Source of the DNA: Candidatus Jordarchaeia archaeon
Lineage (GTDB): Archaea > Asgardarchaeota > Jordiarchaeia > Jordiarchaeales > Jordiarchaeaceae
Assembly: GCA_029856435.1 (NCBI GenBank)
Contig: JAHQXB010000063.1
Span: forward strand, 1 to 64,000
Reading direction: 5' to 3'
Length of the DNA: 64,000 bases
Each line of letters opens with the position of its first letter. Position 1 is the first letter of the stretch. The notes beneath the pieces are model-generated. The model was not told the DNA's origin, ran no database searches, and saw only the letters and a list, made by a program, of their open reading frames with translations. Below, in pieces: positions 47,612 through 61,138 of the stretch. Position numbers and translations under genes: made by a program.

Positions 47612-48982
47612 ATGACACAAACGCAAAAAGGAGAAAAATTTGAAGTCAAAGACCTAAAACTAGCACCAAGCGGACGAGCAACAATTGAGTGGGCAGAATC
47701 AAGAATGCCCGTGCTCATGCAAATAAGAGAGAGGTTCCGAAAAGAAAAACCGCTTAAAAACACCATAGTAGGAGCATGCCTCCATGTAACAAAAGAAACA
47801 GCAGTTCTTGCAAAAACCCTGAAAGCTGGAGGTGCAGAAGTCTACCTCTGTGCCTCAAACCCCCTATCAACACAGGACCATGTAGCCGCCGCACTGGTAG
47901 AAGAAGGAATAAACACATTCGCCTGGAAAGGCATGGACTACGAAGGCTACTACCGAGCAATAGCCAACGTTATTAAGGGAGAACCGAACATCACACTAGA
48001 CGACGGCGCCGACCTAGTATCAACCTTAATCAAACTCAAAAGAGGAGAAACCGGCGAGGAAATCAAGGTAGTTAAGAAAATTCTTGGAAGCCGAACAGAC
48101 TGGGCGGACAAAGTATGGGCCGGAGCCGAGGAGACCACAACGGGCGTAATCCGCCTTAGAGCCATGGCAAAAGATAACGTGCTACTATACCCAATTATAG
48201 CTACAAATGATACCCCCACAAAATGGGAAACATAAACACCCCCCGTGTTTAAGCCCAAATTTGACAACCTGTGGGGAACTGGGCAAAGCACCATAGACGG
48301 CATACTGAGAGCAACAGCAGACCTTATCGCGGGCAAAATTTTTGTAGTCGCAGGGTATGGCCATTGCGGTAGAGGCGTAGCGCTAAGAGCTAAGGGGCTA
48401 GGAGCGAGAAGAGTCATCATATGCGAGATAAATCCACATCGAGCCTTAACAGCCGCCTTAGAGGGTATGGAAGTAATGCCCATGAGGGAAGCCGCAGAGG
48501 TGGGAGACATTTTCGTAACCGCCACAGGATGCAAGAACGTCATAAATGCAGAACATATGAAAAAGATGAAAAACGGAGCAGTGATGTGTAACACAGGTCA
48601 CTTTAATGTGGAAATAAATATACCTGACTTGGAGAAAATCAGCGTTAGCAAGAGAGAGATAAGACCACTAGTCGATGAGTACACACTGGAGGATGGAAGA
48701 AAAATCTACCTACTAGCCCAAGGCAGGCTTGTGAATCTAGCATGTGCTGAGGGACACCCAAGCGAAGTTATGGACATGAGCTTTTCTGATCAGGCTTTAG
48801 CTGTGGAGTGGATTGTTAAGAATAGGGATAAGCTGTCTGGGATGGGTAGTGTGGTTTTGGATATTCCTGAAGAGATTGATAGGACTGTTGCAGAATTGAA
48901 GTGTAAGGCTATGGGTCTTAGATTAGATGTTTTGACCCCTGAGCAGGAAGCTTATTTGTCGGGCTGGGCTGAAGGAACCTAG
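47612..48982 (+). CDS. ahcY: S-adenosylhomocysteine hydrolase, intron-containing (exons 47612-48229 and 48260-48982; 446 aa)
   Basis: [30 protein letters not shown], spliced [37 protein letters not shown]. Confidence 0.95.
48230..48259 (+). other. 30-nt BHB intron in ahcY (contains in-frame TAA)
   Basis: TGGG-AAA-[CATAAACAC ccccc GTGTTTAAG]-CCCA-AAT. Confidence 0.92.
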
Positions 48983-49663: not shown

Positions 49664-50782
49664 ATGGATACTGAGGAAAAGGTTCAGCGTGTCTTGCGTG
49701 GCTTGAGTGAGGTTATTACTGTTGAGGATTTGCGCAATTTGTTTGAGGTAGATAACCACCCTAAGGCTTACATAGGTGTTGAGCCTTCTGGATAAACCTT
49801 TTAGGCTTTCTAGGGTTCCAGAATATTTCATTTGGGCTGGGTGGTTTGGGCCTGGAAGGTTCAGGATTTGGTTCTTTGTGATGTGGATATGCATGTTCTC
49901 GAAGCGACTTGGCATGCTAAGATTAATGACAAGTTTGGTGGAAACATGGATACCATACACACCTGTGCAAAGTATATTGAGCACTGTTTACAAGCGTTGG
50001 GTGTAGATATTGGTAGGGTTCGTTTTCCAAAGGCTGAGGATCTTATGGATAGTTTGGATTATTGGGCCACAGTGATAAACATTGCTAAAAACACTACGCT
50101 GGCACGTATTAAGAGAGCTATGAGTATTATGGGCCGCAAAGTAGACGATGCTGAATCGGATTATTCAAAAACGCTTTATCCTTGCATACAAGTGGCTGAC
50201 ATCTTATATGCTGGTTTTAAGCTGTGTCTGGGTGGGACTGACCAGAGAAGAGCTCACATATTGGCGAGGGAGTTGGCTCCTAAGTTCGGCTTGGATTGGA
50301 AGCCGGTAGCGATTCACACTCCTCTCCTCATAGGCTTGGAGGGATTATCGAGGATGGAGGTTGAAGGTGTGAATGAGGATGTTTTAATGGAGGCCAAGAT
50401 GTCGAAATCCAAACCTCAAACAGCAATTTTTATACATGATAAGCCAGAGGAAATCAGGAGTAAAATCTCTGCTGCCTTTTGCCCACCTAAACAGGTAGAA
50501 TTCAATCCAATAATTGAAATAAATAGGCTTCTTCTTTTTTCCAGAGAAGGTTTCATTCTTCATGTGGAACGTGAGGAAAAATTTGGAGGGGATGTAGATT
50601 TTGAGAGCTTTGATGAATTGAAATCTGCCTACAGCGCCGGTAATCTCCATCCTCTGGACTTGAAACGGGCTACTGCAGAGGCACTCATTGCACTGCTGAA
50701 AAATGTTAGACAACATTTTGAAAAGAATAGTGAAGCCCGTAACCTTTTAGAAACATTAAAAAAGGCTACAGTGACCCGGTAA
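49664..50782 (+). CDS. tyrS: Tyrosyl-tRNA synthetase, intron-containing (exons 49664-49793 and 49824-50782; 362 aa)
   Basis: Spliced KAYIGVEPSGLFHLGW, YPCIQVADI, GGTDQRRAH, KMSKS, LHPLDLK. Confidence 0.95.
49794..49823 (+). other. 30-nt BHB intron in tyrS HIGH-motif region (creates in-frame TAA)
   Basis: CTGG-ATA-[AACCT..GGGTT stem-loop]-CCAG-AAT. Confidence 0.92.
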
Positions 50783-59988: not shown

Positions 59989-61138
59989 TTAGGATACTGG
60001 ACGCCAGATAATTCCTAGTTCATCCGCTGTTTTGTATGCTTCCTCCATTTCGTGGCTAGTAACCCTTCTACATATGTCTGCATATTCCTTCCTTCTTGGC
60101 ACCTCGTGTGTTGGGTGATACTGTTCCATTATGTTAACTAAAGCCTTGGGGCAATTTTTAGCCACCCATTCAAGAACCGGTTTGGTGCAACACTCAATGT
60201 GTCCCGGTAAAACTAGGTGCCTTATTATCATGCCAGATGTTCCTGGTTCCACAGTTTCATCATAGGCCATTTTATGATTTCTTGAAACAATTTCCCAGTA
60301 ATTAGAAACTTTACTCAACCTTTCTGCGCATTGATCATTCCCATATTTAAAGTCGGGGAGCCAGAAATCCATAACGTCTAATAAAAGCTTCATACATTCT
60401 TTGGAACAGTACATATTAGAATTCCATAGTTGTACAATGTTTGTTTTAGTTTCCCTTACGCCCTTTAAAATGTTGTAGGTGTTTGGAGTTGGTTCTCCAC
60501 CCACATAATTTATGTTTCTTGCACCTTCCCTCTTTAGATCTCTTGAGATTCGTGCAAGGCTCTCACCCGAAGTTTCTATACCGTTTTTTGGATTTGTGGA
60601 AATGTCATAGTTCTGACAAAACACGCATTTAAAAGTGCAACTGGAGAAGAAGAATGCACCGTAAGAGCCTTAACTCTTAAGCGTTTGTGCCTGAAGGAAC
60701 TAAAGGGGCCTCTTCTCCAGTATGTATGAATGCTGAGGATACATAAGACTCTCTGCCAAGTTTACAAAATCCTTTTTCACCCTCCAGTCTATTAGCCCCA
60801 CACCGTCTTTCACAGAAATGACACTGCGATAGAATCCTTCTTGCTAGTTCCACCTTAGCATCTAAATAAGAAATCTTCGGCGAATCAATGTTTCCCAGAT
60901 CCAGTTCACCTGCATCAATCCGCCTCAAGACACTCCTAAAAACACCACTTATTCTATCATGCTCATCCCAAAGCTTGCCCAGCTCCGCATCTAGCTCAAC
61001 ATCTACACCTACTTTTAAAGCTATCATAAACTTAGCATAAAGCCTATCATTGAATACCTCATAGTACCTCCAAAGCCTCTCACGAACTGTACCGTCATCC
61101 CAAACACGGTAAGCATCTGGGCGAATTAGCTTCCACAT
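59989..61138 (-). CDS. PflX-like radical SAM protein, intron-containing (exons 61138-60685 and 60653-59989; 372 aa)
   Basis: CHFCERRCGANR, spliced HTGEEAPLVPSGTIFFSSCTFKCVFCQNYDIS, VGGEPTP, PDFKYGND, RHLVLPGH. Confidence 0.92.
60654..60684 (-). other. 31-nt BHB intron in pflX-like gene
   Basis: GCAC-AAA-[CGCTTAAGAG ttaagg CTCTTACG]-GTGC-ATT. Confidence 0.92.

Follow-up and report, generated by a model that had tools for sequence, protein, structure and literature searches.

A probable BHB-type mRNA intron in the SAH hydrolase gene of a Jordarchaeia archaeon

The ahcY gene of the Candidatus Jordarchaeia genome GCA_029856435.1 carries, inside the catalytic motif of SAH hydrolase, a 30-nt insert with an in-frame stop codon. 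This insert is very probably a BHB (tRNA-type) mRNA intron, obligatorily spliced by EndA and RtcB. Relatives without the insert encode the predicted spliced junction, and among relatives that have it the length of the insert varies while the helix and bulges that would guide its removal stay constant.

The interrupted gene and the fold around the insert

The window analysed here is a stretch of 64,000 nt (positions 1 to 64,000 of contig JAHQXB010000063.1, forward strand), in which ahcY occupies a single reading frame (Table 1). Codon 207 of the gene (ACA) starts at position 48230 and the homologous frame resumes with TTT GAC at 48260, so that the insert measures exactly 30 nt and is in frame. 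The peptide encoded by exon 1 ends in ...NDTPTKWE, and the insert lies between TKWE and FDN, within the catalytic TKxxFDN motif, which is whole only once the insert has been removed. The match to PF00670 begins at residue 3 of exon 2, which places the intron at the boundary of the two protein domains. Over the full-length product, both AdoHcyase and AdoHcyase_NAD are recognized (Pfam E-values of 2e-59 and 3e-55, respectively). The product of the unspliced frame could be aligned end to end with solved SAH hydrolases (PDB 7R39, E = 7e-139); compared with these, it has exactly 10 extra residues between TKW(E) and FDN and none elsewhere in the motif. The gene is present in a single copy in the 3.54-Mb metagenome-assembled genome (97.8% complete, 5.7% estimated contamination) and has no lesions besides the insert. 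The first-pass annotation of this DNA had described a 30-nt insert with an in-frame stop at 48230–48259 and the peptides that flank it, and both the reading frame and the alignment with SAH hydrolases bear this out. AhcY of this order also has an in-frame insertion of ~20 residues relative to solved homologues (window positions ~48030–48120, + strand), which is open and translated and is not an intron.

Table 1. Features of the ahcY gene and of the predicted BHB structure (window coordinates)
Feature	Position	Strand	Remarks and basis
ahcY, whole gene	47612..48982	+	Single frame, open apart from TAA at 48233-48235
ahcY exon 1, substrate-binding domain, 206 codons, ends in TKWE	47612..48229	+	ORF and translation; Pfam AdoHcyase PF05221, E = 2e-47
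ahcY exon 2, NAD-binding domain and C-terminus, including stop codon	48260..48982	+	Pfam AdoHcyase_NAD PF00670, E = 4e-56
Putative BHB intron, 30 nt	48230..48259	+	Boundaries from the rule of cutting after the second bulge nucleotide; absent in intron-less relatives; BHB finder, folds
In-frame TAA, codon 2 of the intron	48233..48235	+	Unspliced translation would end after residue 207
Central helix, 5' strand TGGG (Trp codon and first base of Glu)	48224..48227	+	Pairs with 48254-48257; invariant in 9/9 variants
Central helix, 3' strand CCCA, from the intron	48254..48257	+	Pairs with 48224-48227; folds
5' bulge AAA	48228..48230	+	Predicted cut 48229/48230; BHB geometry
3' bulge AAT	48258..48260	+	Predicted cut 48259/48260; BHB geometry
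Intron hairpin	48231..48253	+	Stem 48231-48239/48245-48253 with one A.A mismatch, loop 48240-48244; folds
Outer helix, exon-1 strand	48214..48223	+	Distal 48214-48220 pairs with 48270-48276 (7 bp); internal loop; proximal 48222-48223 pairs with 48261-48262 (two A-U pairs); MFE or constrained folds
Outer helix, exon-2 strand	48261..48276	+	Proximal 48261-48262, distal 48270-48276; MFE or constrained folds

The insert and its flanks form a 4-bp helix between two 3-nt bulges on opposite strands. The helix TGGG/CCCA and the bulges AAA and AAT had already been proposed in the first-pass annotation, and they held up: the unconstrained MFE fold gives the same central helix, together with the inner hairpin and the distal exon–exon helix. 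The exon-1 strand of the outer helix consists of coding positions, whose conservation is not independent evidence for pairing. In BHB motifs, the endonuclease cuts after nucleotide 2 of each bulge. Cutting by this rule leads to a junction consistent with the homologues, as TKWE|FDN is the sequence found in the intron-less genome G007 and in other relatives, and the rule works equally for the nine known variants of this insert and for five other inserts in ahcY (see below). The predicted spliced junction is TGGGAA|TTTGAC; the A runs would allow the cuts to shift by as many as 2 nt without altering the spliced sequence.

The motif is slightly relaxed in the source genome. The second inner pair is an A.A mismatch, so the inner helix has eight of nine pairs, and the helix past the 3' bulge consists of two A-U pairs only, which are not predicted by the folding program. 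Measured against the strict hBHBh' form, the 3' side is relaxed and BHL-like, and the inner side is fully canonical in the variants G002, G005, L160 and L165. The fold energy of an 81-nt stretch is not unusual (z = -0.97), and that of a 71-nt stretch has z = -2.7. As for chance occurrence, motifs of like quality (four Watson–Crick pairs plus at least eight of nine inner pairs, length 20–45 nt) number 2001 over the 7.08 million strand positions of the genome, that is, ~2.8e-4 per strand position for any of the 26 lengths. Per exact position and length, as for the one register in which the protein is restored, chance occurrence is thus of the order of 1e-5.

Distribution and variation of the insert

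A pattern search detected the insert in seven of 11 Jordarchaeia genomes, comprising all six members of genus g1 and the single member of g3 but none of the four members of g2. Near-identical loci are found in QZM_A3, SQRJ_82, Jordarchaeum madagascariense and the closed chromosome CP147778 (Jordarchaeia being the same group as Freyarchaeia). Seven independent assemblies thus have the insert, among them that of a closed chromosome, as do another five metagenome contigs. In g2, which belongs to the same order, ahcY is intact and reads AAATGGGAG|TTCGAC, which encodes TKWEFDN and is equivalent to the predicted spliced junction; in more distant Asgard archaea, the site in ahcY is likewise uninterrupted.

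Taken together, the genomes and one metagenome scan yielded nine distinct variants of the insert, with lengths of 23, 27, 28, 29, 29, 30, 30, 30 and 34 nt. All three frame classes are represented among them, so that the insert is not a translated loop or a readthrough segment. Exact in-frame joining, as had been claimed from the single sequence, finds support both in this spread of lengths and in the TKWEFDN of intron-less relatives. All seven genome variants, which were read in three frames, retain a stop in the exon-1 frame.

Across the nine variants, neither the 4-bp helix nor either bulge changes; only the hairpin and its loop differ. Hairpin changes among relatives fall in the loop or preserve pairing: the A.A mismatch is replaced by A-U or G-C and two pairs are replaced by G-U. 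In G009, the hairpin has an unrelated sequence, yet the frame of helix and bulges is the same. In the nine-sequence alignment, 95% of the pair cells are paired, as against no more than 51% with the partners slid. The covariation score exceeded that of 500/500 shuffles, in a set of nine related sequences in which only two pairs changed on both sides; with seven sequences it was not significant (91/500 shuffles), and after the addition of the two metagenome variants the signal is modest. The free MFE fold coincides with the BHB-constrained fold in seven of the nine variants.

Both exons are under strong purifying selection, with dN/dS of 0.008–0.095 among the intron-bearing genomes (dS of 0.2–2.2); by exon, the values are 0.03–0.10 for exon 1 (against congeners) and 0.01–0.04 for exon 2. 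The earlier statement that neither half is decaying agrees with these values, which lie at 0.01–0.1 in both exons. Neither half of ahcY has lost its function since the arrival of the intron. In comparisons with the closest congeners (G001, G003 and G004; synonymous difference 0.18–0.34), the 25 structure-forming bases of the intron show no substitutions and one deletion, and the 5-nt intron loop changes freely. A search of a collection of 5.8 billion proteins, which includes assemblies from RNA runs, for a spliced or intron-less close AhcY returned no contiguous AhcY of more than 73% identity, a result that neither supports nor refutes splicing.

Other inserts and the splicing machinery

Comparable inserts are found at other positions of ahcY. 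In the complete Freyarchaeia genome CP147778 (G005), the gene is in four pieces, separated by three inserts of 56, 29 and 191 nt (minus strand of L031), each of which shifts the frame and each of which, when removed by the same cut rule, restores the homologous sequence. These inserts have perfect 4-bp helices (CCGG/CCGG, TGGG/CCCA and CCAG/CTGG), two 3-nt bulges and an abutting inner helix of 8–9 bp. Three genomes of other Asgard families (G021, G035 and G027; loci L032, L033 and L034) have BHB inserts of 31–34 nt in ahcY, located at HPS|EVMD in G021 and G035, which is also the site of the third intron of CP147778, and at HFDIE|I in G027. The HPS|EVMD site, common to three families, could reflect either an old intron or repeated insertion at a favourable site. 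In all, ahcY introns occupy four positions across Asgard genomes.

Other genes of the source genome are interrupted in a similar manner. A 30-nt BHB insert (window positions 49794–49823, + strand; helix CTGG/CCAG, bulges ATA and AAT) interrupts tyrS, which lies 800 nt downstream of ahcY; removal of this insert joins EPSG|LFHLGW and restores the class I synthetase signature. The sole RtcB gene lies outside the window, on the minus strand of contig C93, where a 30-nt insert at L118:1547-1576 places an in-frame TGA between LPD and AHQGYGFPIGG. Compared with Pyrococcus RtcB (1UC2), this insert adds exactly 10 residues. The boundaries are BHB-compatible (CCCG/CGGG, bulges ACA and AAG), with a weak inner helix. 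The rtcB insert is found in each of the six g1 genomes (its stop is TGA in three of them and TAA in two, and in G005 it shifts the frame) and is absent in g2 and g3. The ligase that would seal the spliced exons seems, from its gene sequence, to require splicing itself.

Elsewhere in the window, the frame of a PflX-like radical-SAM gene is interrupted immediately ahead of the CxxxCxxC motif (~60662–60707, - strand); in a relaxed scan, a BHB-compatible removal with approximate boundaries merges the two frames. A genome-wide count of CDS introns of up to 45 nt, based on a strict motif and ORF merging, gave 43 in-phase versus 32–36 out-of-phase loci and missed ahcY itself, and a count based on a relaxed motif and codon-usage scoring gave 255 in-phase versus ~300 out-of-phase loci. 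These counts give no intron number because the signal is drowned by motifs that arise by chance where ordinary genes adjoin.

A BLAST search of the ahcY intron against its own genome revealed no related copy, and the many word matches of 11–13 nt that it returned belong to an unrelated repeat of ~60 copies. This ~100-nt repeat is present in roughly 60 copies or more genome-wide (e.g. at C2:12760-12890, with one copy outside the window on C81 near 72165). It has a highly conserved body and a sharp 3' end, TTCTACATCACC, beyond which the sequence is unrelated, and it resembles a MITE or else the RNA-scaffold end of an element of the IS200/IS605 type; only a 10–13-nt word is common to it and the ahcY intron.

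The genome encodes two EndA paralogues, as do most Asgard genomes according to published work; their genes are located at C104:1178-1756 and on C64 at L117:1195-1788. One paralogue most resembles the catalytic alpha subunit of the (alpha-beta)2 EndA of Aeropyrum pernix (E = 3e-45) and keeps the catalytic Tyr, His and Lys residues; the Crenarchaea-specific loop aligns in it free of gaps, with both basic positions occupied. In published experiments, this loop enabled relaxed motifs to be cleaved irrespective of their position (PMC3241643). The other paralogue is without the catalytic His. The gene for RtcB is present, although it is interrupted by the insert described above. Judging by its gene content, the host appears to have an EndA fit for relaxed, non-tRNA motifs as well as RtcB. 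In Freyarchaeia and Atabeyarchaeia, introns are found in 92–95% of the tRNA genes, many of them at non-canonical sites (PMC11291895). Neither ARAGORN nor an Rfam scan at gathering thresholds detected any tRNA genes in the 64-kb window, in keeping with published reports of multi-intron Asgard tRNAs being overlooked by standard tools.

Under the mechanism that we propose, the exon sequence TGGG of the pre-mRNA would pair with CCCA of the intron, forming the 4-bp helix with its two opposite-strand 3-nt bulges, with the intron hairpin on one side of the helix and a weak exon–exon helix on the other. EndA, here a two-paralogue and probably (alpha-beta)2 enzyme with a broad-specificity loop, would cut at 48229|48230 and 48259|48260, after nucleotide 2 of each bulge. 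RtcB would then join the exons as TGGGAA|TTTGAC, yielding the message for a 446-residue SAH hydrolase with TKWEFDN. On unspliced mRNA, translation would stop at the TAA, two codons into the intron.

Alternative readings and known systems

The ahcY intron looks like one of many such introns that have spread in this lineage. As it is absent in the sister genus, and as similar introns are present in tyrS, in rtcB and at other sites in ahcY, non-specific spread fits better than a device dedicated to ahcY. This bears on the proposal of the first-pass annotation that splicing gates the SAM cycle and SAH detoxification, for which we found no support; no evidence for regulation of ahcY by the intron was seen in the sequence. 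A real intron whose controlled removal gates the output of SAH hydrolase is, in our view, unlikely. The early in-frame stop would indeed make unspliced mRNA unproductive, and since the rtcB gene of this genus also carries an insert of this kind, feedback from splicing capacity to every gene with such an intron is conceivable in principle. However, there is no SAM- or SAH-specific sequence in the intron, an Rfam scan of the window and of the G005 locus found no family and no riboswitch in it, the sister genus g2 does without it, and similar introns in unrelated genes, and at other positions of ahcY in other lineages, point to non-specific spread.

It could also be argued that ahcY is a split gene, in which the N-terminal domain is translated up to the TAA and the NAD-binding domain is translated separately from a GTG at 48245, the two polypeptides assembling into an active enzyme and the hairpin being incidental. 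The break does fall at the domain boundary, with PF00670 starting at exon 2 residue 3; an in-frame GTG or ATG is found upstream of exon 2 in all eight variants that were read in frame; and purifying selection on both halves is predicted by a two-polypeptide reading as well. Still, a break within TKxxFDN would put foreign residues on both new termini, and the candidate starts are not preceded by a purine-rich ribosome-binding sequence. Separate translation would also leave unexplained why the BHB geometry and the cut register remain constant while the length and the hairpin sequence change. In G005 it is untenable, as ahcY would there be in four pieces, with a middle one of ~24 codons. We consider a split gene quite improbable, and splicing of a BHB intron remains the preferred reading.

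Translational recoding, either as readthrough of the TAA to give a 10-residue loop or as a ribosome hop of the kind known from phage T4 gene 60, is hardly credible. In the source genome, the insert is in frame and the hairpin directly follows the stop, but in relatives the inserts of 23, 28, 29 and 34 nt are frame-shifting, the stop (TAA or TAG) is not a known recoded codon of such a class, the take-off and landing codons of a hop would be mismatched (GAA versus AAA), and the insert peptide is not conserved. Readthrough, selenocysteine or pyrrolysine recoding and hopping were all rejected on the grounds of frame-shifting lengths, the identity of the stop and the mismatched codons. A decaying pseudogene or an assembly artefact, which an internal stop in a metagenome-assembled genome with 5.7% estimated contamination might suggest, is equally far-fetched given that the insert recurs in five metagenome contigs and in seven independent assemblies, of which one is a closed chromosome, and given a single-copy ahcY with dN/dS of 0.01–0.1 and no other lesions.

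As far as can be judged from the genomes, the ahcY mRNA almost certainly requires cutting and re-joining by the enzymes of tRNA splicing. What would be new is a core metabolic enzyme of an Asgard archaeon that could not be made without removal of a BHB intron, since the searchable literature reports cbf5 alone as a case in archaeal coding sequences. ahcY also shows gain and loss of BHB introns at four sites across Asgard genomes. The interest of the case rests on the phylum, on the multiple, recurrent insertions in one essential gene and on the interrupted ligase gene. If confirmed on RNA, splicing of protein genes by the tRNA machinery would be a recurrent trait of the archaeal lineage nearest to eukaryotes, and it would allow direct tests of the invasion of coding sequences by introns and of splicing versus coupled transcription–translation. 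Standard gene callers split such genes into two ORFs, so that metabolic reconstructions may score them as fragments.

A broader reading, which we offer tentatively, is that Jordarchaeia, and probably other intron-rich Asgard classes, might possess an obligatory endonuclease-based layer of mRNA splicing, such that the expression of ahcY and of the other genes with introns would be linked to splicing capacity and perhaps adjusted by it. Essential protein genes would then have acquired BHB introns again and again, as many as three in a single gene and with the same ahcY site occupied in three Asgard families, and the mRNA for RtcB would itself need splicing. Were this reading true, interrupted protein genes and post-transcriptional exon joining would be routine in the closest prokaryotic relatives of eukaryotes.

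Splicing of HAC1/XBP1 mRNA by IRE1 and a tRNA ligase such as RtcB is independent of the spliceosome: RNA structure defines the cuts, the removal of a small intron alters translation and the tRNA ligase seals the exons. This unconventional mRNA splicing has been reviewed (PMC13149111). By analogy, the splicing proposed for ahcY would work in a similar way in that it would be spliceosome-independent, with cuts set by structure and sealing by a tRNA ligase. The HAC1/XBP1 system differs from it in using IRE1 instead of EndA and twin stem-loops instead of a BHB and in being a regulated stress response, and there is no homology between the introns or the host genes.

Among archaeal systems, the BHB intron of Haloferax volcanii HVO_1309 (PMC7714728) resembles the ahcY intron in being an mRNA substrate of the archaeal splicing endonuclease but sits in the 5' UTR and interrupts no reading frame. 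The non-canonical tRNA introns of Freyarchaeia and Atabeyarchaeia (PMC11291895; bioRxiv 10.64898/2026.10.13.758758) occur in the same organisms as the ahcY intron, have the same motif and size range, presumably depend on the same enzymes and sit where a BHB can form. In contrast to the ahcY intron, they are located in tRNA genes, and neither of these two papers reports protein-coding ones.

The closest counterpart is the pre-mRNA intron of cbf5 in Crenarchaeota (Aeropyrum, Sulfolobales and Desulfurococcales; Watanabe 2002; Yoshinari 2006; Yokobori 2009, PMC2738675), which a 2020 study gave as the only example of a BHB intron in a coding sequence (PMC7714728; also PMC2738675). Like the ahcY insert, it is a short and often relaxed BHB intron within a CDS; its hosts, like that of ahcY, combine a hetero-oligomeric EndA of broad specificity with numerous tRNA introns; and both introns are patchily distributed among close relatives, which indicates gain and loss. 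Splicing of cbf5 has been demonstrated on RNA, whereas we infer that of ahcY from sequence. Unlike cbf5, ahcY is the gene of a metabolic enzyme in the Asgard phylum, with up to three introns in one congener and four positions across Asgard. With ahcY of an Asgard archaeon as its host gene, the insert falls outside the cbf5 intron family and would represent the same kind of element but not the same intron.
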